64,000 nt of DNA from Escherichia coli (GTDB taxonomy: Bacteria > Pseudomonadota > Gammaproteobacteria > Enterobacterales > Enterobacteriaceae). The notes beneath the pieces are model-generated. The model saw only the letters and a list, made by a program, of their open reading frames with translations. It was not told the DNA's origin and ran no database searches. This document shows, piece after piece, positions 1 to 57,754 of the stretch; position 1 is the first letter of the stretch, and each line of letters starts with the position of its first letter. The position numbers and the translations under genes are program-made. The stretch lies in NCBI RefSeq assembly GCF_003018235.1, contig NZ_CP027437.1; one strand, given 5' to 3'.

Positions 1-32
1 CCTGAACAATAACGTCTTTAATTTCGCTCACG
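1..32 (-). CDS. rsxE: Ion-translocating oxidoreductase complex subunit RsxE, 5' end only (GTG start; gene continues past window start)
   Basis: Reverse complement of nt 1-32 translates VSEIKDVIVQ, matching the RsxE N-terminus as recalled; lies directly downstream of rsxG in the operon. Confidence 0.55.
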
Positions 33-34
33 CT

Positions 35-655
35 TTATTCTCCACAGGCAGGAAGTTGAGAAAGTTGTGCCGGTAACGTCTGAGCGTACAATCCGGCGCG
101 TTTTACCGCATTTACCACCGCGCGCGGAGTAATCGTCGCGCCGGTGAACTGGTCGAAATCACCACCATCTTTCTTCACCGCCCAGTGCGCATCATCCGCA
201 CCACTGATTTTTTTACCCGCAAAATGGGTGATCCAGTCAGAAAGGCGCAGTTCGATTTTATCGCCAAGCCCTGGCGTTTCGTGGTGCTCTGTCACGCGCG
301 TGCCTAGTACCGTGCCGTTAAAATCGGCTCCCACCAGCAGCTGAATTGCACCAGAATAGCCATCTGGCGCGGTTGCTTCCAGAACGGCGGCTACCGGTTT
401 GTCATCCTGTTTGGCGATGTAAACCCGATGCTCACCTTTACCTAACTCTGGCGCAGTGACCAGATAGCAACTCTGTGCCAGCGCATTGTTATAGCGTTCG
501 GCTGGCAGCACCTGATCAAATAACGCCTTTTGTTGCAGACTGGCCTGTTCAGCAATTGTCGTTTTGGTCATCTGGTTGATGGCCGCAGTTAACCCTGTAG
601 AACCCGCTGCAAATAGTGCCAGTGTAATGCCGTGTTTTCGGATAGTTTTCAGCAT
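35..655 (-). CDS. rsxG: Rsx/Rnf electron transport complex subunit G
   Basis: 206-aa ORF recognised as RsxG; operon context rsxABCDGE. Confidence 0.9.
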
Positions 656-658
656 GGT

Positions 659-1716
659 TTACCCTTTGCGATGGCCGTCGACGCGCGGACGCGTGTAGTA
701 ATCGATCAGAGGAACCGTGATGTTCGCCAGCAGGACGGCAAAAGCCACGCCGTCAGGATAGCCGCCGAAACTGCGGATCAACCAGACTAATAAACCCGCC
801 AGCGCGCCGAAAATAAGACGACCACGATTGGTCGTAGAAGCAGTAACCGGGTCAGTCAAAATAAAGAATGCGCCGAGCATAGTCGCACCAGACAGCAGAT
901 GAATTTGCGGTGATGCCAGTGTTTCTGGTGAGAACAACCAGCCCAACGTTGCGCATAACGCCAGCGTTACTAAGAAGCTGAGGGGAATATGCCAGCGAAT
1001 CGCTTTCTGCCATAGCAACCACACGCCGCCAGCCAGCCAGGCGAGATTTACCCATTGCCAACCAGCGCCCGCCAGAATACCGCTGTAGATCGGATATTGC
1101 ATAATCTGTTCAACCGAATGACCGGCACGGACAGAGGTTTTAAATGTATCCAACGGTGTCGCCTGACTAATGCCATCAATACCTAAGCGTAGCGTGTTCA
1201 TATCACCACCACTGGTGGTATGTCCGCTGAAAATAACCTGTATGGCGTCGATAAAACCAGGGATGTTGACCGCAATGTCATGCGACGGTAACCAGCTGGT
1301 CATCTGCACCGGGAAGGAGATCAGTAAGACCACATAACCAATCATTGCCGGATTAAACGGGTTTTGCCCCAGACCGCCATACAACTGTTTAGCGATGATC
1401 ACCGCAAACACCGTACCCAGTACGACCATCCACCATGGCGCGAGGGGGGAATACTTACCGCCAGCAATAAGCCTGTCAGCAATGCTGAGTTATCTTTCAA
1501 CGTTGCGGCTACCGACTGCTTGCGTAGTTTGAGTACGAGAGCTTCGGCTAACAGAGCACTGACCGACGCCAACAGGATCTGAACGAGAGTACCCCAACCA
1601 AAAAACCACAGTTGTGCTGCGATTCCTGGCACGGCTGCGAGCAACACCAACAGCATAATGCGCGATGTCTGGCGCTGGTTATGGGTATAAGGGGAGCTAG
1701 CTATTCTGAATACCAT
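659..1716 (-). pseudogene. rsxD: Rsx/Rnf complex subunit D, disrupted by a 1-nt frameshift
   Basis: Two overlapping ORFs (1399..1716 and 659..1429) together recompose the 352-aa RsxD; frame breaks after ...SIPP at a G6 run (plus 1444-1449) where the expected ...[13 protein letters not shown] needs one more base. Confidence 0.8.
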
Positions 1717-4413
<2,697 letters not shown>

Positions 4414-4414
<1 letters not shown>

Positions 4415-4995
4415 TACAACTTCACCAAACCACTAAAGCCCATAAAGGCCAGAGACATAAGACCTGCGGTAATTAACGCAATGGCATTACCGCGAAAAGG
4501 TGCCGGGACATCAGCCACAGCAAGGCGTTCGCGGATGGCGGCGAAAAGCACCATCACCAGCGAGAAACCGACAGCGGCGGAAAAACCGTACAGCGCCGAC
4601 TGCAAGAAATTGTGCCCGAGATTGATATTCAGCAACGCCACGCCGAGCACTGCACAGTTGGTGGTGATAAGCGGCAAAAAAATCCCCAGCAGACGGTAAA
4701 GCACCGGGCTGGTTTTGCGCACCACCATCTCGGTGAACTGCACAACCACAGCAATCACCAGAATAAACGCCAGGGTGCGCAGGTAAATCAGATTAAGCGG
4801 GATCAAAATCCACGTATCGATAAGCCAGGCGCAAATAGACGCCAGCGTCATCACAAACGTTGTAGCCAGCCCCATGCCCATCGCGGTTTCCAGCTTTTTG
4901 GAAACCCCCATAAACGGACAGAGACCGAGAAACTTGACCAGTACAAAGTTATTGACCAGTACAGTTCCGACAAACAGTAACAGGTAGTCAGTCAT
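4414..4995 (-). CDS. rsxA: Rsx/Rnf complex subunit A (membrane)
   Basis: 193-aa hydrophobic ORF at the head of the rsx operon. Confidence 0.9.
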
Positions 4996-5071
4996 TTTTC
5001 GGCCTGAAATAAAAAAGCCGCCTATTATCCGTTAATCCAGAGCAGGCGACAACAGGTTAACTGTAAGGTTA

Positions 5072-5512
5072 TTACGGATTCACAAACGTCGCTTTCACCC
5101 GCGACGAGCGTTTAAAATAGGGGACGATCAATGCGGTTGCCAACAAAGTAAACAGTAACTGGCGAACGGCTATGCCATCTTCCACGGGTGAAAAAGCGAA
5201 CGCTTTTACTGCCAGCAATACGGAAATAAGCAGCCAGATAATATAGTGTTTAGGAACACAACGCCGACGTTTAAAGAAAGCGATGGTCAACCACAGTGTG
5301 TAATACCACATGGCGATAGCGGTAATAAAAGAAACGCCCCATAAGATTTGTGTCGTCAGTGCTTGTTCGCCGAGCGTTTGAAATGTTTGCGGAGAAGATA
5401 ACGCAGCGGTATACAGCAACAACGCCAGCGTCGTACTTAACAGAGCGACTAAAAGCCAGGCCAATGGGCCAAGCAACCAGCCTCCAATACGTTGTGGCGT
5501 TGTGGTGGTCAT
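5072..5512 (-). CDS. ydgK: Inner membrane protein YdgK
   Basis: ORF 5072..5536; start trimmed to the internal Met (MTTTTPQRIGGWLLGPLAWLL) giving 146 aa; conserved position upstream of rsxA. Confidence 0.8.
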   Translation of the reverse strand: MTTTTPQRIGGWLLGPLAWLLVALLSTTLALLLYTAALSSPQTFQTLGEQALTTQILWGVSFITAIAMWYYTLWLTIAFFKRRRCVPKHYIIWLLISVLLAVKAFAFSPVEDGIAVRQLLFTLLATALIVPYFKRSSRVKATFVNP

Positions 5513-5597
5513 AGGTTCTCCAGAATAGCGACGCAAACAGGCAAATCTAATTTTAGGGGCGTTATTATAAGGCTTTTATAACCGATCGCTACTTTCT

Positions 5598-5813
5598 TTA
5601 TTGGACATAGTGCCAGACGGACTTCGGTACCTGGCCGAGGTCAAACAAACGCCCGCCAGAAACCAGCTCTGCGCGACGGTGATCGGCAGCACGATACATA
5701 TTGATCAGTTCCTGATCGTCCGTCAGGGTGTAATTAAGATGGTCGTAGAGTTTTTCCAGACTTTCGAGTGAACTGATTTTGCGAAATTTTAATAAGTAGT
5801 CCTGAACAGTCAT
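5598..5813 (-). CDS. cnu: OriC-binding nucleoid-associated protein Cnu (YdgT), Hha paralog
   Basis: 71-aa [33 protein letters not shown]... recognised as Cnu. Confidence 0.85.
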
Positions 5814-6085
5814 AAAAGGTCCATAAAATAATTAATACCAAAGGGGTAGGTATTATTAGTGATGATAAAATTTCACCAAAAGTGAACGCGTGTGTTATTA
5901 CAATAATAAGAATGCGCTGATGGCAAATATTCAGGGATGAAAAACTGCTCTGAAAAGAGTAACGCGCTTTACTATCTCTGACAATCACCAACAACATCGA
6001 ACAAGATAATAAATTCCTGGTTTAATATCCGACAAGTGAAAACATGCACCCGGACGGGCAGCATGTCGCTCTACAAGCGCAGAGC

Positions 6086-6211
6086 TTACTTGTGTTGTAC
6101 CGTAGTACTCTGTTCAGGTGGCTGATAGTTGTCAATGTGACTCGCCACGCCAAGAAGAATGACTGAAACGACAAGAACGATCCAACCTGTTAATTCAATA
6201 AGACGATTCAT
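6086..6211 (-). CDS. blr: Small membrane protein Blr (beta-lactam resistance / divisome-associated), 41 aa
   Basis: Internal Met of the 66-aa ORF gives MNRLIELTGWIVLVVSVILLGVASHIDNYQPPEQ..., matching Blr; reverse-complement ATG at 6209-6211. Confidence 0.75.
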   Translation of the reverse strand: MNRLIELTGWIVLVVSVILLGVASHIDNYQPPEQSTTVQHK

Positions 6212-6453
6212 TACAGCCCACATCTCTGTTGATTGATCCATTAACTTCAGGGGGTAAATGTTACTTAGCAATAATAGCTCCAGCAAGATTTTTACTGAGG
6301 TTTTTGCGATATTTAGCTTTTGTCGTTGGAAAATTCGCTATTTTTTTGACTTAAGTTAAACAACATCCCTTATTGCTGGCAGGTTATTAAACTGTTGAGC
6401 GAGGGTAAAGGATAGTGTCAAATAGCCATCATACTTCAATGAGAGGCAATGAC

Positions 6454-7494
6454 ATGAGCGACAACATCCGTGTTGGGTTGATTGGGTATGGTTATGCGAG
6501 CAAAACCTTCCATGCGCCCCTGATTGCGGGCACGCCCGGGCTGGAACTGGCGGTAATCTCCAGCAGCGATGAAACAAAAGTAAAAGCCGACTGGCCAACG
6601 GTTACGGTTGTCTCTGAGCCGAAGCATCTGTTTAACGATCCCAACATAGACCTGATTGTCATCCCTACACCCAACGATACCCATTTCCCGTTAGCCAAAG
6701 CGGCGCTTGAGGCGGGTAAACATGTGGTCGTTGATAAACCCTTTACCGTGACACTGTCACAAGCGCGAGAGCTGGAAGCGCTGGCAAAAAGCCTGGGGCG
6801 TGTGCTGTCTGTATTCCATAACCGTCGCTGGGATAGCGATTTCCTGACGCTAAAAGGTTTGCTCGCGGAAGGCGTACTGGGTGAAGTTGCTTACTTTGAG
6901 TCTCATTTTGACCGCTTCCGTCCGCAGGTGCGCGATCGTTGGCGTGAACAGGGCGGCCCAGGCAGCGGTATCTGGTACGATTTAGCACCGCACCTTCTTG
7001 ATCAGGCCATTACGCTATTTGGTTTACCGGTCAGCATGACGGTAGATTTGGCACAGTTACGGCCCGGAGCGCAGTCGACCGATTATTTCCACGCCATCTT
7101 GTCCTATCCGCAGCGGCGAGTCATTTTACACTGTACCATGCTGGCAGCTGCTGAGTCAGCACGTTATATCGTGCATGGATCCCGAGGCAGTTATGTAAAA
7201 TATGGCCTCGATCCACAGGAAGAACGTCTGAAAAATGGCGAGCGTCTGCCGCAGGAAGACTGGGGCTACGATATGCGTGATGGCGTACTTACCCGCGTGG
7301 AAGGTGAGGAACGTGTCGAAGAAACGCTGTTGACAGTACCAGGGAATTATCCAGCTTACTATGCGGCTATTCGTGATGCGTTAAATGGCGATGGTGAAAA
7401 TCCGGTTCCGGCAAGTCAGGCAATCCAGGTAATGGAGTTGATTGAGCTGGGCATCGAATCCGCCAAACATCGCGCGACGCTGTGCCTTGCGTGA
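6454..7494 (+). CDS. ydgJ: Putative Gfo/Idh/MocA-family oxidoreductase YdgJ
   Basis: ORF 6415..7494; likely start MSDNIRVGLIGYGYASKTFHAPLI (Rossmann GxGxxG) gives 346 aa. Confidence 0.85.
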   Translation: MSDNIRVGLIGYGYASKTFHAPLIAGTPGLELAVISSSDETKVKADWPTVTVVSEPKHLFNDPNIDLIVIPTPNDTHFPLAKAALEAGKHVVVDKPFTVTLSQARELEALAKSLGRVLSVFHNRRWDSDFLTLKGLLAEGVLGEVAYFESHFDRFRPQVRDRWREQGGPGSGIWYDLAPHLLDQAITLFGLPVSMTVDLAQLRPGAQSTDYFHAILSYPQRRVILHCTMLAAAESARYIVHGSRGSYVKYGLDPQEERLKNGERLPQEDWGYDMRDGVLTRVEGEERVEETLLTVPGNYPAYYAAIRDALNGDGENPVPASQAIQVMELIELGIESAKHRATLCLA

Positions 7495-7529
7495 AAAGAG
7501 GATGGTGCAATTAGCACCATCCATTTTTG

Positions 7530-8531
7530 TTACTTCGCAGCGACTTTTTCTCGCAGTGCGCGTTTTTCCTCTGCGCTGAGGAAAGCCATTTCCAGACCAT
7601 TAATCTGCGCCTGGCGGATTTGCTCGCGGGATAACCCAGCAGCCGGCGCGGCAACGGTATATTCGTGAATGATATCCACTCCCTGTACGCCGGGATCGTC
7701 AGTGTTAATGCTGGCACGAATGCCATGCTCAAGGAACGTTTTCAGCGGATGTGCCGCCAGCTCTGCCACGGTGCTGGTCTGAATATTGGAGGTCAGACAG
7801 GATTCAATACCAATTTGTTGCTCGGCGAGAAAATCCATCAGCGCCCGATCTTCAATGGCTTTTACGCCATGTCCAATACGCTCCGCACCCAGTTCACGAA
7901 TCGCCTGCCAGATGCTTTCCGGCCCGGCAGCTTCGCCTGCATGGACGGTAATATGCCAGCCCGCATCACGCGCGCGGTTGAAGTGAGAAAGGAACAGACT
8001 TCCCGGGAAACCAAGTTCATCACCGGCTAAATCAAGTGCGGTAATCTGGTCACGGTGGGCTAAAAAGGCCTCCAGCTCTTGCTGACAGGCGGCTTCGCCG
8101 AAGGTCCGGCTCATAATGCCGATAAGCTTCGCCTGCACACCAAAGGTGCGGCAACCCTCACGTACGCCATCGATCACCGCTTCGACAACACCCGCTACAG
8201 GCAGCTGATGTGCCATTGCCATGTAGCCTGGTGAAAAACGCAGCTCGACATAGTGCAGGCCGTGACGGGCTGCATCTTCAATGTTTTCAAATGCCACGCG
8301 GCGACAGGCATCAAGAGAGGCGAGAACTTTAACGCCCCAGTCAAGTTTGGTCAGAAAGCTCACCAGATCGGGTTCGTTGGCAATGACCTGAACGTGGGGA
8401 ATCAGTGTTTCCAGGGATTGTGCAGGAAGCGAGATATTATACTGGCGGCCAAGTTCAAGAATGGTCTGGGGACGAATGTTGCCATCAAGGTGGCGATGGA
8501 TATCAGTTAATGGCAGGGTGGTATCAATCAT
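7530..8531 (-). CDS. add: Adenosine deaminase
   Basis: 333-aa [24 protein letters not shown]... with the metal-binding HxHxDG motif; matches Add. Confidence 0.95.
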
Positions 8532-8634
8532 GGTCGCACTCTTTTTCTGGATATAAAAGTGCGCACCATTATAAAAACAAAGCAGGGTAAAAATCCACGA
8601 TTGCGCAACGATTTTTTACGTTGCGCAATTGGGG

Positions 8635-9807
8635 TTAACGAACAGCGCGGATGGCGTTAATTAATCCAGCAACACCTTTTTCCAGTTTCGAACGCGGGCA
8701 CCCGGCATTGAGACGGACAAAACCACGACCTTCTTCACCGTAGGTATACCCCGGCATGATCGCGACCTTCTCTTGCTCGATAAGCGCTTTTTGCAACGCG
8801 TTGTCGTCAATATTCAACGGACGTAGATCAATCCAGGCCAGATAAGTGGATTGCGGGATCTGCCAGTTGAGTTCAGGGAACGCGGAGTTCATTTTATCTG
8901 CGATATACGTCAGGTTATCTTTCAGATAGACGCGTAAGGCATCCAGCCACGGCGCGCCTTGCTGATAGGCGGCGATATGGGCAGTTAACGCCAGTACTGA
9001 AGGGGAAGAAAGGCCATCACGTCCTTTCAGTGCCGATAAATAGGCATCACGGCTGCTGCTATTTTCTATAATCCCGTAAGCACCGGTCAGGGCGGGAATA
9101 TTGAAACTTTTCGATCCCGACGTTAGCAATGCCCAGTCTCCGCGCGCCACATTACTCCAGGGAATATGCGGCTGCTCGCCCCAAACCATATCCATATGGA
9201 TTTCATCGGAAATAACCCGCACACCATGACGCTCGCACAGGTCAGCCATGATCTCCAGCTCATCGCACGTCCACACTTTCCCGGTAGGATTCTGTGGGCT
9301 ACACAGGAGCATAATTTTACATTCTGGTTTCGCCAACACGGCTTCCAGCTTGCCCATATCGCAAAACCAGCCGTCAGCCTGCTTCTCTAAAGCAACGGGC
9401 ATTACTGTGCGCTGGTTACCTTCAATGGCCTTGTAAAATGCGTCATAGGCGGGTGTGTGGATCACCACGCCTTCACCTGTTTCAGACCACTGACGAATCA
9501 GTTCTGAAACCATATAGATAACAGAAGGGCCATACACCACCGACTGCGTATCAATGGCGGTGTAATGCTGGGTGGAAAACCAGTGGGCAATAGCCGCGAG
9601 AAACTCATCGTTTTTCCAGCGGCTGTAGCCAAACACGCCGTGCATCAGGCGCTGATTCAGCGCCTCGATAATGCAGGGGGCAGTGGCAAAATCCATGTCT
9701 GAAATCGTGAACGGTAACAGGTCAGCAGTGCCGAAACGGTCAGCGACATAATCCCACTGCGTACACCATGTGCCATGACGATCCACGACCTTTGAAAAAT
9801 CGAACAT
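8635..9807 (-). CDS. malY: PLP-dependent cystathionine beta-lyase / maltose regulon modulator MalY
   Basis: 390-aa ORF recognised as MalY; adjacent to malX. Confidence 0.93.
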   Translation of the reverse strand: MFDFSKVVDRHGTWCTQWDYVADRFGTADLLPFTISDMDFATAPCIIEALNQRLMHGVFGYSRWKNDEFLAAIAHWFSTQHYTAIDTQSVVYGPSVIYMVSELIRQWSETGEGVVIHTPAYDAFYKAIEGNQRTVMPVALEKQADGWFCDMGKLEAVLAKPECKIMLLCSPQNPTGKVWTCDELEIMADLCERHGVRVISDEIHMDMVWGEQPHIPWSNVARGDWALLTSGSKSFNIPALTGAYGIIENSSSRDAYLSALKGRDGLSSPSVLALTAHIAAYQQGAPWLDALRVYLKDNLTYIADKMNSAFPELNWQIPQSTYLAWIDLRPLNIDDNALQKALIEQEKVAIMPGYTYGEEGRGFVRLNAGCPRSKLEKGVAGLINAIRAVR

Positions 9808-9816
9808 ATCTTATCC

Positions 9817-12612
<2,796 letters not shown>

Positions 12613-13491: not shown

Positions 13492-13719
13492 TACACTAAC
13501 GGACCGGTAAACAGCCGTACGTGTTGTTTACCGGGATAGCGTGTGCAATTCATTAACGTCTCTGCGAAACAACTGGCAGCCAAATCACGGCTATTGGTTA
13601 ACCAATTTCTGGGTGAAAAGTATACGAATAGAGTGTGCCTTCGCACTATTCAACAGCAATGATAGGCGCTCACCTGACAACGCGGTAAACTAGTTATTCA
13701 CGCTAACTATAATGGTTTT

Positions 13720-14310: not shown

Positions 14311-17886
<3,576 letters not shown>

Positions 17887-24006: not shown

Positions 24007-26369
<2,363 letters not shown>

Positions 26370-26411
26370 TTATAGCACAGTGGTGGTGACTTGACCACCG
26401 TGCGCGTAATG

Positions 26412-41002: not shown

Positions 41003-41896
41003 ATGAATATTGAACTTCGTCATCTGCGTTACTATGTTGCTGTTGCAGAAGAGCTGCATTTCGGGCGCGCCGCTGCCCGCCTGAATATTTCGCAACCGCC
41101 GCTAAGTCAGCAGATTCAGGCACTGGAGCAACAAATCGGTGCCCGACTGCTGGCACGAACTAATCGCAGTGTATTGCTGACGGCAGCAGGAAAACAGTTT
41201 CTTGCAGATAGTCGGCAAATCCTGTCTATGGTGGATGACGCTGCCGCTCGCGCTGAAAGACTGCATCAGGGTGAAGCGGGGGAGTTGCGCATTGGTTTTA
41301 CTTCGTCCGCTCCTTTTATTCGGGCGGTGTCCGATACGTTATCGCAGTTTCGCCGTGATTATCCCGATGTCCATTTACAAACCCGCGAAATGAACACTCG
41401 CGAGCAAATCGCTCCGCTCATTGAAGGAACGCTGGATATGGGATTGCTGCGTAACACAGCGTTACCGGAGACGCTTGAACACGCAGTCATCGTCCATGAA
41501 CCGCTTATGGCGATGATCCCGCACGATCATCCCCTGGCAAATAACCCGAGTGTAACGCTGGCTGAACTGGCGAAAGAACCCTTTGTCTTTTTTGATCCGC
41601 ACGTAGGGACAGGGCTGTATGACGATATTCTCGGACTGATGCGACGTTACAATTTGACGCCCGTCATCACTCAGGAGGTGGGTGAGGCAATGACCATCAT
41701 CGGTCTGGTTTCCGCTGGTCTGGGTGTTTCAATTTTGCCTGCGTCATTTAAACGTGTTCAGCTCAACGAAATGCGCTGGGTGCCGATTGCTGAAGAGGAT
41801 GCGGTTTCTGAAATGTGGTTGGTCTGGCCGAAACACCATGAACAAAGTCCGGCTGCGCGTAACTTTCGTATTCATCTGCTGAATGCTCTCAGGTGA
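41003..41896 (+). CDS. ynfL: LysR-family transcriptional regulator YnfL
   Basis: 297-aa ORF with N-terminal LysR HTH (LRHLRYYVAVAEELHFGRAAARLNISQPPLSQQI). Confidence 0.85.
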   Translation: MNIELRHLRYYVAVAEELHFGRAAARLNISQPPLSQQIQALEQQIGARLLARTNRSVLLTAAGKQFLADSRQILSMVDDAAARAERLHQGEAGELRIGFTSSAPFIRAVSDTLSQFRRDYPDVHLQTREMNTREQIAPLIEGTLDMGLLRNTALPETLEHAVIVHEPLMAMIPHDHPLANNPSVTLAELAKEPFVFFDPHVGTGLYDDILGLMRRYNLTPVITQEVGEAMTIIGLVSAGLGVSILPASFKRVQLNEMRWVPIAEEDAVSEMWLVWPKHHEQSPAARNFRIHLLNALR

Positions 41897-42030
41897 GGGA
41901 AATTTCAGCGAAAAAGCCCGAAAAATGTGCTGTTAATCACATGCCTAAGTAAAAATTTGACGACACGTATTGAAGTGCTTCACCATAGCCTACAGATTAT
42001 TTCGGAGCGCGAAAATATAGGGAGTATGCG

Positions 42031-43251
42031 GTGGTTGCTGAAAATCAGCCTGGGCACATTGATCAAATAAAGCAGACCAACGCGGGCGCGGTTTATCGCC
42101 TGATTGATCAGCTTGGTCCAGTCTCGCGTATCGATCTTTCCCGTCTGGCGCAGCTGGCTCCTGCCAGTATCACTAAAATTGTCCGTGAGATGCTCGAAGC
42201 ACACCTGGTGCAAGAGCTGGAAATCAAAGAAGCGGGGAACCGTGGCCGTCCGGCAGTGGGGCTGGTGGTTGAAACTGAAGCCTGGCACTATCTTTCTCTG
42301 CGCATTAGTCGCGGGGAGATTTTCCTTTCTTTGCGCGATCTGAGCAGCAAACTGGTAGTGGAGGAGTCGCAGGAACTGGCGTTAAAAGATGACTCGCCAT
42401 TGCTGGATCGTATCATTTCCCATATCGATCAGTTTTTTATCCGCCACCAGAAAAAACTTGAGCGTCTGACTTCGATTGCCATAACCTTGCCGGGAATTAT
42501 TGATACGGAAAATGGTATTGTACATCGCATGCCGTTCTACGAGGATGTAAAAGAGATGCCGCTCGGCGAGGCGCTGGAGCAGCATACCGGCGTACCGGTT
42601 TATATTCAGCATGATATCAGCGCATGGACGATGGCTGAGGCCTTGTTTGGTGCCTCACGCGGGGCGCGCGATGTGATTCAGGTGGTTATCGATCACAACG
42701 TGGGGGCGGGCGTCATTACCGATGGTCATCTGCTACACGCAGGCAGCAGTAGCCTCGTGGAAATAGGTCACACGCAGGTCGACCCGTATGGGAAACGCTG
42801 TTATTGCGGGAATCACGGCTGCCTCGAAACCATCGCCAGTGTAGACAGTATTCTTGAGCTGGCACAGCTGCGTCTCAATCAATCCATGAGCTCGATGTTA
42901 CATGGACAACCGTTAACCGTGGACTCATTGTGTCAGGCGGCATTGCGCGGCGATCTACTGGCAAAAGACATCATTACCGGGGTAGGCGCGCATGTCGGTC
43001 GCATTCTTGCCATCATGGTGAATTTATTTAACCCACAAAAAATACTGATTGGCTCACCGTTAAGTAAAGCGGCAGATATCCTCTTCCCGGTCATCTCGGA
43101 CAGCATCCGTCAGCAGGCCCTTCCTGCGTATAGTCAGCACATTAGCGTTGAGAGTACTCAGTTTTCTAACCAGGGTACGATGGCAGGGGCTGCGCTGGTA
43201 AAAGACGCGATGTATAACGGTTCTTTGTTGATTCGTCTGTTGCAGGGTTAA
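42031..43251 (+). CDS. mlc: ROK-family global repressor Mlc (DgsA)
   Basis: 406-aa ORF MVAENQPGHIDQIKQTNAGAVYRLIDQ... with the C-terminal zinc site CxCGxxGC. Confidence 0.9.
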   Translation: MVAENQPGHIDQIKQTNAGAVYRLIDQLGPVSRIDLSRLAQLAPASITKIVREMLEAHLVQELEIKEAGNRGRPAVGLVVETEAWHYLSLRISRGEIFLSLRDLSSKLVVEESQELALKDDSPLLDRIISHIDQFFIRHQKKLERLTSIAITLPGIIDTENGIVHRMPFYEDVKEMPLGEALEQHTGVPVYIQHDISAWTMAEALFGASRGARDVIQVVIDHNVGAGVITDGHLLHAGSSSLVEIGHTQVDPYGKRCYCGNHGCLETIASVDSILELAQLRLNQSMSSMLHGQPLTVDSLCQAALRGDLLAKDIITGVGAHVGRILAIMVNLFNPQKILIGSPLSKAADILFPVISDSIRQQALPAYSQHISVESTQFSNQGTMAGAALVKDAMYNGSLLIRLLQG

Positions 43252-43375
43252 CATTTTTTAACTGTTCTACCAAAATTTGCGCTATCTCAATTTGGGCCAG
43301 GAAAGCATAACTTAGACTTTCAAGGTTAATTATTTTCCTGGTTTATATTTGTGAAGCATAACGGTGGAGTTAGTG

Positions 43376-44071
43376 ATGCTGAAGCGTTTCTTTATTACCG
43401 GTACAGACACTTCTGTAGGGAAAACGGTGGTTTCCCGCGCATTGCTACAAGCGTTAGCCTCCCAGGGAAAAACGGTTGCGGGATATAAACCCGTAGCGAA
43501 GGGGAGCAAAGAGACACCCGAAGGGCTGCGTAATAAAGATGCCCTGGTGTTGCAGAGTGTTTCAACCATCGAACTGCCTTATGAAGCAGTTAATCCTATC
43601 GCGTTAAGCGAAGAAGAAAGTAGCGTGGCGCACAGTTGCCCAATCAATTACACCCTCATTTCAAACGGCCTGGCAAACCTGACCGATAAAGTCGATCATG
43701 TGGTGGTAGAAGGGACTGGCGGCTGGCGCAGTCTGATGAATGATTTGCGTCCGCTCTCTGAATGGGTGGTGCAGGAACAACTGCCGGTGTTGATGGTTGT
43801 CGGTATTCAGGAAGGTTGCATTAACCATGCACTGCTAACAGCTCAGGCGATCGCCAACGACGGGCTACCGCTCATTGGCTGGGTGGCTAACCGAATCAAT
43901 CCAGGACTGGCGCATTATGCGGAAATCATTGATGTGCTCGGTAAAAAACTTCCGGCACCGCTCATTGGTGAACTGCCTTATCTGCCGCGCGCCGAACAGC
44001 GTGAACTGGGGCAATACATCCGCTTAGCTATGCTTCGCAGTGTGCTGGCGGTAGATAGAGTCACGGTGTAA
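43376..44071 (+). CDS. ynfK: Dethiobiotin synthetase paralog YnfK (BioD2)
   Basis: ORF 43364..44071 trimmed to [17 protein letters not shown] (P-loop), 231 aa. Confidence 0.85.
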
Positions 44072-45280
44072 CGTCCGCGAAATTACCGACGCAATTACGC
44101 AGGCAATCAATAAACCGGGGAGTAGCTGATACTCCCCGGTCATTTCACATATCATCAACGTCGACATAATCGGCGCGTGCGTGGTTGCCGCCAACAGTGT
44201 CGCCATCCCGGTAAATCCGAGTAAAAGCGTAATTTCTTCGCCATCAGGGAACCATAATCCCAGGCTACGACCATACAACATGCCAATGGCAAGACCGATA
44301 AATAGCGTCGGTGTAAAGACACCACCGGGCGCGCCAGAACCACTACTCGCCAGCACGGCAAACAGTTTACAGAGGAAGATCCCGGCAATGATCATTAACA
44401 GTGGCGGGGCGGTTAAAAAGGATTGTACGGTGCTATAGCCGTTGCCCCACACTGCAGGTGTGAACAGGGAAAGCAGACCCACGATCAACCCGCCCAGTGC
44501 CAGTTGCCAGGGCGGCGCAAGTTTGAGACTTACAAATCCACGATGACAGGCGTTCATTAACGTTAACAACAGTGGTCCGCACAGACCTGCCAGCACACCT
44601 GTACTGATAATCAGCGCATAGTCACGAGCCTGAACCGTCACTGAGAGTTGTACGCTGTAGAGTAACGCGTCGCTATGATTAATCAGATTGCTAACCAGCA
44701 ACGCCACGACGGCGGAAATAATCACCGGGCCGAGAGAGGCCAACATCATAGTGCCAAACAGCACTTCGGCTATAAATAAACTGCCAGCAAGCGGGGCGCG
44801 ATAGGCCGCAGCCATTCCCGCCGCAGCTCCACAGGCGATCCATAATTTCCACTCCTGGCGTGGCGTAAAACGTTGGACAAAACAGGAGGCGGCAAGGGCA
44901 GCTAAAAGAATCATCGCACCTTCGCGACCAATTGCACTGCCGCTGGTTACTACCAGCAGAGAGGCAAGCGATTTAACCAGGCTTGCTGCGTAATCAAACT
45001 GCCCATCGGTTTGTAACGCTTCCATGTAATCGGTCGGCGCATGAGGGCGTTGCTGGGTAAATTTCTGCCAGCCCATCAGCAACAAACCCGCCGCCAGTCC
45101 GCCGAGCGCCGGAGTTAGCAGCCGTCGCCACGGGGAAAGATTTGTCGCTGCATTGACCAGACTGCCCGAGTCATTATTGAGGAACAACCACTCCAGTAGC
45201 AGCATCGTATGACGAAACCCGGCAACGGCAAAGGCCGCGAGAATACCGACGACTGTTGCGATAAGCAGACGGCGGAACAT
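44024..45280 (-). CDS. clcB: ClC-family voltage-gated chloride channel ClcB
   Basis: ORF 44024..45340 trimmed to [12 protein letters not shown] (418 aa); ClC selectivity-filter motifs GSAIGREG and GxFxP present. Confidence 0.85.
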
Positions 45281-45473
45281 AGTGCGCAGATCCGGATAGA
45301 TGTGTAGATGATGCATGAGCAGAAATGGGCAATGAAACACGGGCGACTATTTTGCGGCAAAAGAGGCCAGACGCAAAAGCAGTGCGTGCTTTAAGAGATA
45401 AAAAACGTGACACTGTAACCTATTATTGCCGAATTGCGCGTAATCGCCACCATCCGGCAATATTACGGTGATC

Positions 45474-46088
45474 CTATCGAAAGAGTGGTTTAACCGCGAC
45501 AGGAATTAACAGTTGTGATTGCCATTGCGCCAGCGTTAAGCGAGCCAGTTCACCCAGTGCACGGTAGAAAGGGTGTTCTGCTTTTTCGATAAAAACGTCA
45601 AGAAAACGTGTTGACCACGGAAAAAGGTGCCATGCCAGCAATTCTTCGCATTCTGTCTGGCGACCATTCTCCGCCAACCACGCAGCCATCAACAGCAGTG
45701 AACCAAAATGATCTTCCGGTTCGTTTTGCTGCATTTCAAACTGAATGCCTTTCTCGCGCATCCACTGACGAAGTGCCAATGTTGAATCGCCAAACAGCAC
45801 AGATTCGCGATCCAGCCAGACCGACCCCCACGGCGGTGATGGCAGAGCCCACGGACCGACAAACAAACGCTGCCAGGCCTGGGCGCGAGTCTCTTCACTC
45901 TGTGCCTGAAAAGCCGTCACCAGCGGCGCTAATGACGCTTCTGGTAGAGGCCACTGAGTTTCCCAGCCGTCACGGGTGAGTACCGCAACCAGGGGGGCGG
46001 CTTCCGCACTCTCTGGAGCGTAATAAAACAGCGCGCCCAACACGCGCGCCGCGACAGAAAAATTATCTTGCTGTGAAAAATGGGTCAT
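45474..46088 (-). CDS. dmsD: Tat proofreading chaperone DmsD
   Basis: ORF trimmed to MTHFSQQDNFSVAARVLGALFYYAPES (204 aa). Confidence 0.85.
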   Translation of the reverse strand: MTHFSQQDNFSVAARVLGALFYYAPESAEAAPLVAVLTRDGWETQWPLPEASLAPLVTAFQAQSEETRAQAWQRLFVGPWALPSPPWGSVWLDRESVLFGDSTLALRQWMREKGIQFEMQQNEPEDHFGSLLLMAAWLAENGRQTECEELLAWHLFPWSTRFLDVFIEKAEHPFYRALGELARLTLAQWQSQLLIPVAVKPLFR

Positions 46089-46130
46089 TCCTAACATCCT
46101 GAAATGTGCGGGTTGCCCCGCACCAATTTG

Positions 46131-46985
46131 TTAACCTGCAATAGCCATTCCTACCGTCATGTGCAGGCCATAAAAGAGCACACGCCCGATCATCTCACCG
46201 CCAAGTATGAGGATTAGCCCCAGAACAAGTCCGGCAACGTGAGGTTCACGGCGACGAATGAGCGGACAAAGCCAGCATCCTAGACCTGTGCATAACAATA
46301 CCACACGCCAGACCTGTAAGGAGGCGTAATCTGGTACCAGTGCGCTGGCTTGTTGTACGGATGAGTGAATAGACGCCAGAGACAAACCTTGCAGCACAAT
46401 CACCCCGGCACAAGCGATCAGCGCCAGAACGCTAATGATGGCAAATGGTGTGGTATTAAATGTAACGCGGGCTGCCCGCAGAATTGCAGCAGCAAGTATT
46501 GGACCGCTCAATAATACTGTCAGGAAGAAAGCCAGCGTAGTGTAACCGTTATGCCAGGTTGGCACAGTGTCGATTTGATACACGCCGGTCATCATCCAGA
46601 CGAAAATGACGCCGAGCGCCATGCTGACAAGTAACCAGAGTTTCCCCAACGCTTGCGGCATTTTACCGATGATCGCCACCAGCCACCATAATCCGCCAAC
46701 GGCAAAAAATATTGAACCGGCAGCAATCTCGTTACTCAGACCAGAAGCTCCGATTCGATTCAGCGAGTTAAACGCCCGCAGTGGCGATCCCAGGTGCATG
46801 ACAGAGGCAATAAACCCGATGCCCATCAACAGCCAGAGGAAAAACATGCCACGAACAATGTGCTGACGGTCTGCGTCATTTTTGGCGGCGAACCAGCCAA
46901 TTCCGCTAACAATCAGCGCGCCTACTACGCATTGACCCAATACGGTAAAGATAACCAGTGGCCATTCATGCCATCCATTTCCCAT
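46131..46985 (-). CDS. ynfH: DmsC-type membrane anchor subunit of the YnfEFGH oxidoreductase
   Basis: ORF 46131..47225 trimmed to MGNGWHEWPLVIFTVLGQ (284 aa); reverse-complement ATG at 46983-46985. Confidence 0.85.
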   Translation of the reverse strand: MGNGWHEWPLVIFTVLGQCVVGALIVSGIGWFAAKNDADRQHIVRGMFFLWLLMGIGFIASVMHLGSPLRAFNSLNRIGASGLSNEIAAGSIFFAVGGLWWLVAIIGKMPQALGKLWLLVSMALGVIFVWMMTGVYQIDTVPTWHNGYTTLAFFLTVLLSGPILAAAILRAARVTFNTTPFAIISVLALIACAGVIVLQGLSLASIHSSVQQASALVPDYASLQVWRVVLLCTGLGCWLCPLIRRREPHVAGLVLGLILILGGEMIGRVLFYGLHMTVGMAIAG

Positions 46986-46986
46986 T

Positions 46987-47604
46987 TTACACTTCCTCCG
47001 GATTAGCCAGATAACCAGTGGTATCGCCGGTCGGGCGGCTGTTGGCGTTAGGTTTGATAACGATATTGGGTTTTGTGAAATGCGCGCGCGGCAGTGGCGC
47101 GACGGCAGCCAGAGTGCCGTGCTTCTGGCGCAGCTCTTCAATTGGACCGAACTCAAGTGCACGCAGCGGGCAGGATTCGACGCATATGGGTTGTTTCCCC
47201 TCGGCGACGCGCGAATAACAACCATCGCACTTCGTCATGTGCCCTTTTTCAGCATTGTACTGTGGCGCGCCGTACGGACAAGCCATGTGGCAGTAGCGGC
47301 AGCCGATACAAACATCTTCATCAACCACCACAAAGCCATCTTCACGCTTATGCATTGCGCCGCTGGGGCAGACTTTTGTACATGCGGGGTCATCGCAATG
47401 GTTACAGGAGATGGAGAGATAATAAGCGAACACGTTCTGGTGCCAGACGCCATTATCTTCCTGCCAGTCGCCGCCAGCATATTCATAAATACGGCGGAAA
47501 CTGACTTCCGGGCCAAGATCTTTAAAATCTTTGCACGCCAGTTCGCAGGTTTTACAGCCAGTACAGCGGCTGGAATCGATAAAAAATCCATATTGTGTGG
47601 TCAT
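46987..47604 (-). CDS. ynfG: DmsB-type 4x[4Fe-4S] electron-transfer subunit
   Basis: 205-aa ORF with four Cys clusters (CxxCxxCxxxC). Confidence 0.9.
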   Translation of the reverse strand: MTTQYGFFIDSSRCTGCKTCELACKDFKDLGPEVSFRRIYEYAGGDWQEDNGVWHQNVFAYYLSISCNHCDDPACTKVCPSGAMHKREDGFVVVDEDVCIGCRYCHMACPYGAPQYNAEKGHMTKCDGCYSRVAEGKQPICVESCPLRALEFGPIEELRQKHGTLAAVAPLPRAHFTKPNIVIKPNANSRPTGDTTGYLANPEEV

Positions 47605-47614
47605 GGGCTACTCC

Positions 47615-50041
47615 TTAAACCTTTTCGATCTGGACAAGATTGCTGTGCGACGGGTTTCCCTTTGCCAGCGGTGAAGGGCGGTGAGAGGTCAGAATATTGA
47701 TACTGCCGCCGTGATCGACCCGGTCACCAAACATATCCGCTTTAAGCCACGCACCTTGCCCGATGGCGGTAACGCCAGGCAGAATACGCGGAGTCACTTT
47801 TGCGGCAATCAGCATTTCTCCATTATTGTTAAATACCCGCACGGTATCGCCATGACGGATACCGCGTGCCTGAGCATCAATAGGGTTTATCCACACCTCT
47901 TGTGGGCAGGCCTGCTGTAACACATCAATATTGCCGTAGCTGGAGTGGGTACGCGCTTTGTAGTGGAAGCCCGTTAGCTGCAGTGGATAGGTTTTCCGCA
48001 GGGGATCGTCCCAGCCATCAAAACCTGGGGTATACGCAGGAAGGGGATGAATAATTTCATCTTTTTTCAATTCCCAGGTATCCGCAATCGTCGCCAGTCG
48101 TTCAGAATAAATTTCGATTTTCCCCGAAGGTGTTTTCAACGGGTTTGCCTGTGGATCTTCACGGAATGCGCGGAAAGCGACGTAGTGTTCTTCCGGGCAT
48201 TTTTTCTTAAAGATCCCGGTCGTTTTCATCTCCTCGTAGTCGGGCATCTCAGGGTTACGTTCCTTCGTTTTCGCATGGAGATATTTGATCCATTCGTGCT
48301 GACTGCGGCCTTCAGTAAAGGTTTGATAAACGTCTGGTCCTAAGCGTTTGGCGACTTCACTCAGCATCCAGTAGATGGGTTTGCGTTCAAATTTTGCTGA
48401 GGTTGCGGGTTGGGCGAGGATCACATAGCCCATATTCCCGGCAGATTCGTGAGAGATAAGGTCTTCTTGCTCTGTTGGCATCAGGTCGGGCAACAGGATA
48501 TCGCAATACTTAGCCGAGGCAGTCATGAAGTGGTCAATGCCAACAATCATCTCGCACTTGCTGTCATCCTGAAGCACCTCATGGGTGTGATTGATGTCGC
48601 CATGTTGATTGATCAATGTGTTACTGGCGTAGCACCATAAAAACTTGATGGGGACATCCAGTTTTTCTTTTCCACGAACACCATCACGGGTCGCGGTCAT
48701 TTCCGTACCGTGGTCGATGGCATCTGTCCATGTAAAGACGGAAATCTGCGTTTTAACAGGATTCTCAAGCATCGGGAACCATTCTACCCCCAGATCCCAG
48801 CTACCTTCGCGTACACCTGAGTTGCCGCCGTTTATGCCGACGTTACCGGTGAGAACGGAAAGCATGGCAATAGCGCGGGACGTTTGTTCGCCGTTGGAGT
48901 GTCGTTGTGGCCCCCAACCCTGACAAATATAAGCAGGTTTTGCTGAACCGATCTCTCGTGCCAACTGGATAATTTTTTCTGCCGGGATGCTGGTGATTTT
49001 TGCTGCCCATTCCGGCGTTTTAGCTATGCCGTCAGGCCCTTCGCCCAGAATATAGGCTTTATAATGCGCGTTACGTGGTGCGTTGGCGGGCAGCGTTTTT
49101 TCATCGTAACCAACACAATATTTGTCGAGAAATGGCTGATCGACCATGTTTTCAGTAATCAGTACCCAGGCAATCGCACAGGCCAGTGCGCCATCGGTGC
49201 CTGGGCGAATTGGCAGCCATTCATCTTCACGCCCGGCAGCAGTGTCGTTATAACGTGGATCGATGACGATCATGCGTGCGTTTGAACGTTCTCGGGCTTG
49301 CTCGACGTAGTAAGTGACACCACCGCCGCTCATCCGGGTTTCTGCCGGGTTATTTCCGAACATAACGACCAGTTTCGTATTGGCTATATCATCCGGGCTG
49401 TTGCCATCATTGGCACCGAACATATAACTCATTGCGGCACTGATTTGAGCGGTACTGTAGCTGCCATAGCGACTGAGAAAACCACCGCAAGAGTTCATCA
49501 GACGGTACGGGACGTTCGAGTTGGTGATGTTTCCGCCATCTACGCCTGTTCCGTACAGGACATGTACAGCCTCATTGCCGTATTCTTTCAGGATCCGCCG
49601 AAGATTATCACTGATGGTATCCAGGGCTTCATCCCAACTTATCCGTTCAAATTTACCTTCACCGCGCTTGCCGACGCGCTTCATGGGATATTTCAACCTA
49701 TCAGGATGATTCATCCGTCGGCGGATAGAGCGCCCGCGTAAACACGCCCGAACCTGATGATTACCGTAGACGTCGTCACCTGTCGTATCAGACTCCACCC
49801 AGTACACGGTGTCATCTTTCACATGCAAACGTAACAGACAGCGGCTCCCGCAGTTAACGGTGCAGGAACTCCAGACCGCTTTCTCTTCTACCGGTGCCTC
49901 TGCCGCTCGGACCATTTGGGAAAATGGCAGAGTGAAAGCACTGCTTGCCAGCGCAAGACTGCCAAGTGCGGAGGTTTTCATCAGACTTCTACGGCTGATT
50001 TCAGCCTTCATGAGCGCCTCTGTGGTATGGATTTTCATCAT
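47615..50041 (-). CDS. ynfF: Tat-exported molybdopterin oxidoreductase (DmsA paralog, selenate reductase-associated) YnfF
   Basis: 808-aa ORF with twin-arginine signal (SRRSLMKTSALGSLALAS) and Mo-bisMGD catalytic domain. Confidence 0.9.
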   Translation of the reverse strand: MMKIHTTEALMKAEISRRSLMKTSALGSLALASSAFTLPFSQMVRAAEAPVEEKAVWSSCTVNCGSRCLLRLHVKDDTVYWVESDTTGDDVYGNHQVRACLRGRSIRRRMNHPDRLKYPMKRVGKRGEGKFERISWDEALDTISDNLRRILKEYGNEAVHVLYGTGVDGGNITNSNVPYRLMNSCGGFLSRYGSYSTAQISAAMSYMFGANDGNSPDDIANTKLVVMFGNNPAETRMSGGGVTYYVEQARERSNARMIVIDPRYNDTAAGREDEWLPIRPGTDGALACAIAWVLITENMVDQPFLDKYCVGYDEKTLPANAPRNAHYKAYILGEGPDGIAKTPEWAAKITSIPAEKIIQLAREIGSAKPAYICQGWGPQRHSNGEQTSRAIAMLSVLTGNVGINGGNSGVREGSWDLGVEWFPMLENPVKTQISVFTWTDAIDHGTEMTATRDGVRGKEKLDVPIKFLWCYASNTLINQHGDINHTHEVLQDDSKCEMIVGIDHFMTASAKYCDILLPDLMPTEQEDLISHESAGNMGYVILAQPATSAKFERKPIYWMLSEVAKRLGPDVYQTFTEGRSQHEWIKYLHAKTKERNPEMPDYEEMKTTGIFKKKCPEEHYVAFRAFREDPQANPLKTPSGKIEIYSERLATIADTWELKKDEIIHPLPAYTPGFDGWDDPLRKTYPLQLTGFHYKARTHSSYGNIDVLQQACPQEVWINPIDAQARGIRHGDTVRVFNNNGEMLIAAKVTPRILPGVTAIGQGAWLKADMFGDRVDHGGSINILTSHRPSPLAKGNPSHSNLVQIEKV

Positions 50042-50098
50042 TACTCACTTATTGCTTTTCAAACAAAATGTCATGTCAGAATTTATGGTTGTAGTGGG

Positions 50099-52524
50099 TT
50101 ATATTTTTTCGATCTCGACCAGATTAGTGTGCTGCGGGTTTCCCTTCGCCAGTGGTGAAGGGCGCAGAGTGGTTAGCGTATTCACACAGCCGCCATGGTC
50201 GATTTTATCGCCAGACATATTGGCCTCGTGCCAGGCTCCCTGGCCCATAGCGCTAACCCCAGGGAGAATGCGTGGTGTCACTTTGGCTGGTAGCCGAACT
50301 TCGCCACGATGGTTATACACCCGCACCATATCGCCGTTGGCAATCCCACGTTTCTGTGCGTCTATAGGGTTGATCCACACCTCCTGACGGCAGGCAGCCT
50401 TCAGGACATCAATGTTGCCGTAGGTCGAGTGAGTACGGGATTTGTAATGGAAACCGAACAGTTGCAGTGGAAAGGTACTACGTTCAGGGGAGTCCCAGCC
50501 TTCAAAGGTTGAGGCATAAACCGGCAGTGGGCTTATCACTTCATCTTTTTCCAGTTCCCAGGTACGGGCAATTTCCGCCAGCTTGCTGGAATAAATTTCA
50601 ATCTTACCGGAAGGCGTTTTAAGTGGATTTGCCTCGGGGTCGTCACGAAATGCTTTGTAGGCGACAAAATGACCATTGGGATCTTTACGCTTATAGATAC
50701 CCATTTTTTTCAGTTCGTCGTAAGACGGTAACGCCGGATCTTTGGCAAGCATTTTGGCGTACAGATGTTGTAACCATTGTTCCTGCGTGCGACCTTCTGT
50801 GAACTTTTGATAGACGTCAGGTCCAAGACGTTTCGCGACCTCACTCAGGATCCAGTAAATCGGTTTGCGTTCGAATTTTTCGCTGGTGACTGGCTGAAGG
50901 AAAATGAGATATCCCATGTTACCGGCGTAGTCGTTAGGAATAATATCTTCCTGCTCAACGGTCATCAGGTCTGGCAGCAGAATGTCGGCATATTTTGCCG
51001 ATGAGGTCATAAAGTTTTCGATGACCACAATCATTTCGCATTTCGATTCGTCCTGCAGAATTTCATGCGTTTTGTTGATGTCAGAATGCTGATTAACGAG
51101 GGTATTTCCCGCATAGTTCCAGATGAACTTAATGGGCACATCCAGTTTATCTTTGCCCCGGACACCGTCGCGGATTGCCGTCATTTGCGGGCCATGATCG
51201 ATAGCATCTGTCCAGCTGAAGCAGGAGATTGACGTTTTGACCGGATTATCCAGCACCGGTAGGCGTTCTATGGTAATGGTATAGGTCGATTCACGCGCGC
51301 CACTATTCCCGCCGCTGATGCCGACATTGCCCGTCAGAATAGGCAACATCGCAATAGCACGTGCAGTCAGCTCGCCGTTTGCCTGGCGTTGCGGTCCCCA
51401 GCCCTGGCAGATATAAGCGGGTTTTGCTGTGCCAATTTCACGCGCCAGTTTGATGATACGGTCCACCGGGATACCGGTAATTTGCGAAGCCCACTGCGGC
51501 GTTTTCGCTGTTTTATCGTCACCTTCACCAAGAATATAGGCTTTATAGTGACCATTTTTTGGTGCATCTGCGGGTAAGGTTTTTTCGTCATAGCCGACGC
51601 AGTATTTATCGAGAAAAGGTTGATCAACGAGATTTTCGTTAATCAATACCCAGGCAATACCCGCAACCAGCGCGGCATCGGTGCCCGGGCGAATAGGTTG
51701 CCATTCGTCTTCACGACCAGCAGCTGTATCGGTATATCGCGGATCGATAACAATCATTTTGCGTTCGATTTCTCGCGCGCTTTTTCAAGAAGATAAGTGA
51801 TGCCACCGCCGCTCATGCGGGTTTCTGCCGGGTTGTTACCAAACATCACGACCAGCTTGCTGTTTTCAATATCCGTGGTGCTGTTGCCATCATTACTGCC
51901 GTAGGTGTAGGGCATGGCACAGGAAATTTGCGCGGTGCTGTAGGAGCCATACTGGTTGAGTGAACCGCCGTAGCAGTTCATCAGGCGTTTGACCGCCGAG
52001 GCGGATGGCGAAGAGCGGGTCATATTGCCGCCAACGATCCCTGAAGAGTACTGAATATATACAGCCTCATTGCCATATTGTTCGACGGTTTTTTTCAGGC
52101 TACTGGCGATAGTATCCAGGGCTTCATCCCAGCTAATCCGTTCGAATTTGCCTTCGCCGCGTTTGCCCACGCGTTTCATTGGGTAATTCAAGCGATCGGG
52201 ATGATTAATACGCCGACGGATGGAGCGACCGCGCAAACAGGCACGTACTTGATGATTGCCATACTCGTCGTTGCCGGTGTTGTCAGTTTCCACCCAGGTC
52301 ACTTCATTATCTTTAACATGCAGACGAAGTGCACAGCGGCTACCACAGTTGACGGAACAGGCACCACAGAGCACTTTCTCGCTGGCCTGTTGTACCGCTG
52401 CCGCTGCACTGCGCAGGGTGAACGGTAAAGAAAAACCGCCTGCAGCCAGCGCCAGAGAACCTATCGCGGTAGATTTAACGAGTGTTCTGCGGCTGATGCC
52501 CACCATTTGTTCATTTTTGGACAT
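50099..52524 (-). pseudogene. ynfE: Tat-exported molybdopterin oxidoreductase YnfE (ynfF paralog), split by a -1 frameshift
   Basis: ORFs 51754..52524 (256 aa, Tat signal SRRTLVKSTAIGSLALAA) and 50099..51757 (552 aa) join as ...EKSNAK|MIVIDPRY...; the break is an A4 run on the coding strand where A5 would keep the frame. Confidence 0.8.
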
Positions 52525-52722
52525 AACTCACTCCCTGTTCTTTATCGTTATATAAAAGTTTATATATTGAATATTTAGCGCGCTAACAATAGAGGGAGTC
52601 TACCTATTTTGGGTTAAGAATTATTAATCCATATCAATAGAAGGGTATGAGTAATAAGGTGGGATTATGTTGTATGTTCAAATCGCCGGATGTGTCGTAT
52701 CCGGCGTGCAGTCGATAATGTG

Positions 52723-53028
52723 TTACTGCGGTTCGGCAGGCGCGCCATCCTGGGTAGACTGCGCGGGAGCAGAGACGTTACCGCTGGTGGTGCGGGTGTA
52801 GAGAATTTTATGCGTATCATTAGCGCAATGCCCGACGACCTGGGAATCAGGCTGATCAACCTGGTCATTGGGTACAATACTTAACGTGAAGCTGCTTTCG
52901 GGTACGCCATTATTGATAATGCGCTGTGATATATCGCTCTGTATGCGCTCACAGGATCCCGGCGCGGCGAGTACCGCGGGTGAGGCGAGGGCGAGCAGAA
53001 GCGCGGCACAGCAGGTTGAGAGTTTCAT
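52723..53028 (-). CDS. ynfD: Small secreted protein YnfD (DUF1161)
   Basis: ORF trimmed to MKLSTCCAALLLALASPAVLA (signal peptide), 101 aa. Confidence 0.75.
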   Translation of the reverse strand: MKLSTCCAALLLALASPAVLAAPGSCERIQSDISQRIINNGVPESSFTLSIVPNDQVDQPDSQVVGHCANDTHKILYTRTTSGNVSAPAQSTQDGAPAEPQ

Positions 53029-53135
53029 CATAAGCTCCTTACGCGAAGATAACTTCTCTAAGCATAGCATTTAACGTGTAAAGTACTGTATTTGCTACTA
53101 TGATTGAGAATCATCTCTACTCTCTGGTGACTGTT

Positions 53136-53846: not shown

Positions 53847-53848
53847 TG

Positions 53849-54409
53849 CTATTGTGCGGTCGGCTTCAGGAGAGTCTGACCCGGTATTTTGTGCTCTGCC
53901 AGATACTGATGCTGGAATATGCACATGCGAATGGCATTCCGATATTGACCATTAATAAAGAACTCATGCATCAATTCACCTTCAACCGTAAAGCCAAGCT
54001 TGCGGTAAATGTGAATCGCTTTTTCATTCTCTTTATCGACGATCAGATACAGCTTATAGAGATTGAGAACGGTGAAGCCATAGTCCATTGCTAATTTTGC
54101 GGCACGCGTTGCCAGACCTTTCCCCTGATATTCCGGGGAGATAATTATCTGAAATTCTGCGCGGCGATGAACATGGTTAATTTCCACCAGCTCCACCAGA
54201 CCGGCTTTTTCGCCGTCACATTCCACCACAAAGCGCCGTTCGCTCTGATCGTGAATATGCTTATCGTACAGATCAGAGAGTTCAACAAAGGCTTCGTAGG
54301 GTTCCTCAAACCAGTAACGCATCACACTGGCGTTATTGTCGAGTTGATGTACATAGCGTAAATCTTCACGCTCCAGCGGGCGTAGCTTAACACTGTGGGC
54401 GCTTGGCAT
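53849..54409 (-). CDS. speG: Spermidine N1-acetyltransferase (GNAT)
   Basis: 186-aa [42 protein letters not shown]... recognised as SpeG. Confidence 0.92.
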
Positions 54410-54443
54410 AACGTGTCCTTACATTCCTTAAATCAATAACAGG

Positions 54444-54785: not shown

Positions 54786-54919
54786 AATTCATTCCCTGTA
54801 TGAATGATTAAAGGTGATTCTACACCATCCACTGCGAACGCAAAACGTACCAGGAGGATGTTTATATTGATGATATTATGTCGTCCTATAACTATACATG
54901 ATGTCAATAAGTGACAAAG

Positions 54920-56666: not shown

Positions 56667-56677
56667 GGAGTAAGATA

Positions 56678-57697: not shown

Positions 57698-57754
57698 TAC
57701 CAATAACGGCGAGTAAGTAGTACGCATCTTACCTCTTTTTTAGAGATAACCATT

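Follow-up and report, generated by a model that had tools for sequence, protein, structure and literature searches.

A one-base deletion in the C7 tract of rsxD in an Escherichia coli chromosome: probable homopolymer undercall in a long-read-based assembly

RsxD is the membrane core subunit of the SoxR-reducing complex RsxABCDGE and carries the covalent-FMN site in its C-terminal part. In the stretch of Escherichia coli DNA analysed here (64,000 nucleotides, hereafter referred to as the window), rsxD is divided into two open reading frames by the lack of a single base in a homopolymer run, which raises the question whether the strain has lost this subunit or whether the deposited sequence has lost a base. 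An earlier note on the same DNA had given equal weight to a true lesion and to a sequencing error. The evidence compiled below tips clearly towards error, since the lesion is a singleton among near-identical relatives and since the same shortened tract turns up in about 1.9 % of the complete E. coli genomes in clusters that follow sequencing projects, a derivative of strain K-12 included.

The rsxD locus and its genomic setting

The window represents core chromosome of E. coli and is collinear throughout with the nearest RefSeq complete E. coli genomes, which share 99.0–99.2 % identity with it. Its minus strand carries, in this order, rsxG, rsxD, rsxC, rsxB, rsxA, ydgK and cnu, beyond which follow add, malXY, uidABC, manA, fumAC, tus, rstAB, pntAB, tqsA, mdtJI, the ynf cluster, rspAB and then a prophage. 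The contiguous arrangement of rsxA, B, C, D and G on the minus strand is that of the rsxABCDGE-nth operon, whose last genes, rsxE and nth, come next in the relatives, past the edge of the window. The features of the locus are as follows:

35–655, minus strand: rsxG, intact, downstream of rsxD in the operon
659–1716, minus strand: rsxD, whole locus, 1058 nt here and 1059 nt when intact, equal to the copies of relatives L011 and L012 save one C
659–1429, minus strand: C-terminal rsxD ORF as written, 256 aa, NF002011 profile positions 97–351, 462.6 bits
1399–1716, minus strand: N-terminal rsxD ORF as written, 105 aa, TGA stop at 1401–1399, NF002011 profile positions 1–92
1444–1449, minus strand (plus-strand G6): C6 homopolymer in rsxD, codons Ile89-Pro90-Pro91; reference C7, ATT CCC CCC CTC
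1717–3843, minus strand: rsxC, intact, 708 aa, immediately upstream of rsxD
3836–4414, minus strand: rsxB, intact
4414–4995, minus strand: rsxA, intact

As written, the minus strand reads GTA AGT ATT CCC CCC TCG CGC CAT GGT GGA TGG with the C6 tract at 1449–1444, whereas alignment to other E. coli genomes, a check that the earlier note had proposed, yielded ATT CCC CCC CTC GCG, i.e. C7, as the reference state at this site. The product of the N-terminal ORF consists of 91 native RsxD residues (ending in AVSIPP) and a 14-residue out-of-frame tail, while the C-terminal ORF corresponds to residues 97–352 of intact RsxD with the internal Met97 as start; the two ORFs overlap by 31 nt. Translation of the sequence repaired by insertion of one C gives a 352-aa RsxD free of internal stops. 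The family is described by the models NF002011 and TIGR01946 (NCBIfam) and PF03116 (Pfam), and the intact RsxD of a relative, which equals that of the window plus one C, matches the RsxD equivalog NF002011 over its full length with 629.6 bits against a cutoff of 415. In place of the single uninterrupted reading frame of about 352 aa by which RsxD/RnfD proteins are recognized, the sequence as written offers 105 and 256 aa. The anatomy described in the earlier note, namely a gene split into these two minus-strand ORFs by a one-base loss in the C run, truncated after about 91 residues and rebuilt to 352 aa by one added base, was thereby reproduced in each of its parts. Because the missing C is a structural departure from the normal form of the gene rather than a statistical signal, the finding does not raise a question of chance.

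Once repaired, the gene resembles E. coli rsxD (b1630), coding for an RnfD-type membrane subunit, in its place in the operon, in its nucleotide sequence (about 99 % identity) and in its full match to NF002011. It differs from K-12 by the frame broken after residue 91 and by the substitutions P145S, E147D and Y347D. The C-terminal ORF contains an S-x-A-T motif, which we take from the biochemistry of RnfD/NqrB to be the site of the threonine for covalent FMN attachment; flavinylation of the protein is a prediction.

Several further structures were observed in the window. The minus-strand gene rsxC harbours a tandem array (1766–2188) of 4.4 copies of a 96-nt (32-aa) unit, which encodes the Ala/Lys/Glu-rich linker of RsxC; sizes of 704, 708, 736 and 740 aa were seen for RsxC in different strains, and short-read contigs break at the array. 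Two small intergenic differences from strain GF60 were found, both common to the window's close relatives: 8 bp are inserted in the hdhA–uidR spacer (13539–13546), and the rstB–tus spacer contains a rearranged patch (26367–26390). A lambdoid prophage remnant (57885–64000) starts just past rspB and comprises an integrase (57885–59165), an excisionase and an 823-aa exonuclease, followed by ydfD and dicB. Its proteins diverge from those of reference strains more than the core genes do, the exonuclease by 11 amino acid changes.

Near-identical genomes and the quality of the assembly

The window could be compared over about 54 kb with near-identical relatives:

1–11716: L012 (GCA_025433985.1), sole difference the C in rsxD
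10844–32019: L026 (GCA_040083855.1), 2 SNPs and no indels; intergenic C11 run (14407–14417) equal in size
within 40099–62524: L020 and L021, 4 SNPs each and the indel in ynfE (the gene being intact in both)
41754–59558: L022, 4 SNPs, and an A/T run at 55369 that differs by one base
41754–59558: L023, 3 SNPs and no indels

Over these approximately 54 kb, the C in rsxD is the only indel private to the window's assembly. The contigs L011 and L012 (GCA_025433985.1) agree with the window base for base over 6.8 and 11.7 kb apart from this position, and L011, L012 and L013 all possess C7. Neither in rsxD nor in the rest of the operon was any further decay found versus the intact relatives L011/L012. 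The substitutions P145S, E147D and Y347D, which distinguish the window's lineage from K-12, are likewise present in the intact copies of the relatives. Old pseudogenization by way of these changes was accordingly rejected, as they constitute the normal allele of the lineage. Intact RsxD with the three substitutions was retrieved from 22 contigs (41 blocks), and the matching split C-terminal fragment from a single contig. This contig, an NCBI chromosome of 5,012,557 bp, encodes the ynfE fragment as well and is presumably the window's own source. The chromosome scale of this contig indicates a long-read-scale assembly. Absence from independently sequenced near-identical genomes (22 intact contigs versus one split) is a hallmark of an artefact; singleton status in a well-sampled lineage fits an artefact, yet it also fits a brand-new mutation.

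Among 61 genes of the window compared with annotated orthologs, only rsxD and one other gene are disrupted, and neither nonsense mutations nor IS elements were detected in this set. The second lesion is located in ynfE, coding for a selenate/tellurate reductase subunit:

50099–52524, minus strand: ynfE, A5 shortened to A4 (T4 on the plus strand, 51757–51760), TGA stop at 51756–51754

By this loss, GCA AAA ATG becomes GCA AAA TGA and translation ends after Lys256. The resulting 256-aa fragment is encoded on 21 contigs of the window's lineage, demonstrating that the ynfE frameshift is real and inherited; L022 and L023 carry the A4 allele, while the gene is intact in the sister genomes L020 and L021. 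The adjoining paralog ynfF is intact. Both as a slipped-strand pseudogene and as an error in a homopolymer consensus, the rsxD lesion would be of a well-known kind. It shares with the slipped-strand frameshift pseudogenes of E. coli and Shigella, of which ynfE is an example in the window itself, the loss of one base from a mononucleotide run and the ensuing truncation. The ynfE lesion, however, is inherited and present on 21 contigs, whereas the rsxD lesion is found in no other member of the lineage.

The homopolymers agreeing with the relatives over about 54 kb comprise 64 six-base runs, 20 seven-base runs (all A/T) and the intergenic C11 run. As the latter is right and the genuine A4 frameshift in ynfE was called correctly, the assembly is not a crude one, and the idea of a generally error-ridden assembly was discarded with 2 of 61 genes disrupted and one of these lesions being real. 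Genome decay of the Shigella type was also rejected, given the lack of IS elements and nonsense mutations and the full collinearity with E. coli. The rsxD tract, when intact, is the only coding G/C run of at least seven bases in the window and hence the site most exposed to homopolymer error. The C11 homopolymer itself lies between uidA and uidR, upstream of uidA, and is a variable tract: its counterpart is a six-base run in strain GF60 and appears to be G6 in K-12, and the close relative L026 has the same size as the window.

The shortened tract in other E. coli genomes

The size of the rsxD tract was scored on GTA and GTG backgrounds in 5,424 RefSeq complete E. coli genomes. In-frame C7 was found in about 98 % of the rsxD genes. 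C6 occurred in 12 genomes on the GTA background, which is the local background of the window; a further 93 had it on GTG, the more frequent background, giving about 105 of the 5,424 genomes (~1.9 %). C8 occurred in two, corresponding to a C6:C8 ratio of about 50:1. Since C6 resides on at least five different rsxD haplotypes, it arose many times. Such alleles (e.g., in NZ_CP027550.1, NZ_CP014348.1 and NZ_CP122768.1) are labelled "frameshifted" pseudogenes by PGAP. Among the matches listed, 19 C6 genomes are CDC STEC genomes with CP027xxx accessions, which we attribute to the PacBio project of Patel et al. 2018, and 17 are swine ETEC genomes with CP122xxx accessions, the latter encompassing both haplotypes and chromosomes of 4.70–5.58 Mb. 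The distribution of C6 tracks sequencing projects and not phylogeny, and such recurrence in unrelated assemblies along project or platform is a further mark of an artefact. The K-12 MG1655 reference has C7. In the assembly of the K-12 derivative JW5437-1 the tract is C6; no other difference was seen across 22.7 kb, and no other pseudogene across 40 kb. On the K-12 allele, C6 is also displayed by NCTC9041 and by the laboratory strains ER2683 and DTU-1. Homologs that are likewise split into two ORFs, named in the earlier note as a finding that would speak against its reading if the split were functional, thus do exist; they look, however, like the same artefact and not like a functional split.

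The type of assembly in which C6 occurs was assessed from block counts in a larger collection, binned by the longest contig carrying the respective protein (50–200 kb, 0.2–1 Mb and >1 Mb, in this order):

C6 N-terminal RsxD fragment: 0, 1 (L007, with many split genes) and 3 blocks
ManA: 186, 55 and 11 blocks
YnfF: 188, 94 and 23 blocks

By these bins, ordinary short-read drafts almost entirely lack C6, and chromosome-scale assemblies hold a disproportionate share of it. Among Logan contigs of one rsxD haplotype (L038–L045), C5, C6 and C8 were encountered on essentially identical flanks and under neighbouring run accessions; several of the Logan contigs with split rsxD bear additional indels, and most are very short. 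This variation probably reflects noisy reads and not biology. The contigs were therefore rejected as short-read-backed evidence of real alleles, in view of three tract sizes on one haplotype, the extra indels and the tiny contigs. The spread of C5, C6 and C8 is at the same time the only observation able to support real hypervariability of the tract. A literature search retrieved no paper tying rsxD to homopolymer variation or pseudogenization.

Origin of the missing base and its implications

Taken together, the C6 tract of rsxD is very probably a G/C homopolymer undercalled at the base-calling or consensus stage of a long-read-based assembly, a reading that for the window's own call draws on comparison of sequences. 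The deposited sequence would then be one C short in the C7 run, and the living strain would possess an intact 352-aa RsxD together with a working SoxR-reducing complex RsxABCDGE. An indel in a mononucleotide run that changes its size by one, here from C7 to C6, is what an artefact of this kind is expected to leave. The case resembles known homopolymer consensus errors of long-read sequencing (PacBio RS II or ONT) in the one-base deletion from a G/C run of seven, the PGAP label "frameshifted", the otherwise clean assembly, the private allele with full runs in the relatives, the miscalled K-12 derivative and the project clusters. It differs in that the C11 run of the window agrees with that of a relative, which is better than expected of a crude long-read consensus. 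Among the complete genomes that show C6, artefacts appear to be roughly ten times as common as real alleles.

A real, very recent and strain-private slipped-strand mutation from C7 to C6, inactivating RsxD, is considered unlikely, even though the base is indeed absent from the sequence given. C7 tracts are genuine hot spots of slippage, the assembly otherwise matches its relatives down to the C11 run, and the ynfE frameshift in the same window is demonstrably real. Loss of rsxD function is also attainable under selection: alleles of this kind were selected in the laboratory with H2O2, with amikacin plus chloramphenicol and with tetracycline (the nonsense mutation L23*), and rsx disruption results in constitutive soxS expression. 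Against a real mutation stand the C7 of all other sampled members of the lineage, the lack of secondary decay, and the behaviour of C6 elsewhere, which is that of a platform artefact with project clusters, strong deletion bias and a failed K-12 control, and which includes its near absence from contigs of short-read draft size. A further proposal is that the C7 tract is a genuine contingency switch of the SoxR-reducing system in E. coli populations, with the window representing a phase-variable OFF variant. Public assemblies do contain C5, C6, C7 and C8 on what is essentially a single haplotype, about 98 % of genomes keep the rare Pro codon CCC at two positions and thereby C7, and loss of rsxD can be advantageous under stress. 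The variant sizes, however, derive from assemblies with other indels, from short contigs or from long-read projects and are hardly ever seen on contigs of the size usual for short-read drafts, the literature search uncovered no report linking rsxD to such variation, and seven bases are short for a high-rate switch at contingency loci. Phase variation is on these grounds regarded as highly improbable. If it were true, E. coli clones would lose the SoxR-reducing complex and recover it at random, generating subpopulations with derepressed soxS and higher tolerance towards drugs and oxidants, and part of the database "noise" at the tract would be biological.

Function of the split gene as written is hardly credible. 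Full-length protein could in principle be formed by a -1 slip on CCC CCC, where re-pairing of the P-site tRNA-Pro one base back would, judged from the codons, restore IPPLAPWW exactly; alternatively, reinitiation at the ATG at 1429, situated 28 nt upstream of the stop of the first ORF and just behind GGTGG, could provide fragments that assemble. GGTGG, however, abuts this ATG with essentially no spacer, an X XXY YYZ heptamer is absent from the zero frame, and PGAP annotates such alleles as frameshifted pseudogenes. About 98 % of the homologs are in frame with C7, which argues against a conserved recoding signal and makes a functional split or recoding very unlikely. The conserved out-of-frame arrangement in combination with slippery site and stimulator that characterizes programmed frameshifting was not found, and any rescue by slip or reinitiation would amount to low-level leakage.

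Were the deletion real, the native protein would break off at residue 91, no membrane core subunit would be made and the Rsx complex would fail. Slow re-reduction of SoxR would be expected to raise basal expression of soxS and its regulon and to confer mild tolerance towards oxidants and multiple drugs, and premature termination may in addition exert polarity on rsxG, rsxE and nth. The earlier note's reasoning from loss of RsxABCDGE to raised soxS is sound, as deletion of any rsx gene renders soxS transcription constitutive according to the statements of Koo et al. 2003 that are quoted in PMC3588905 and PMC5405530. Raised soxS would therefore be the known phenotype of rsx mutants rather than new biology. 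Because the evidence tips to a sequencing error, the predicted soxS phenotype probably does not apply to the living strain.

Beyond this strain, the rsxD C7 tract appears to be miscalled recurrently and systematically in long-read sequencing, which makes it worth flagging to curators. About 105 RefSeq "complete" E. coli genomes carry a frameshifted rsxD, apparently mostly for technical reasons, and rsxD pseudogene calls should not be used at face value in pseudogene catalogues, pan-genome analyses or genotype-phenotype studies of the SoxRS system.
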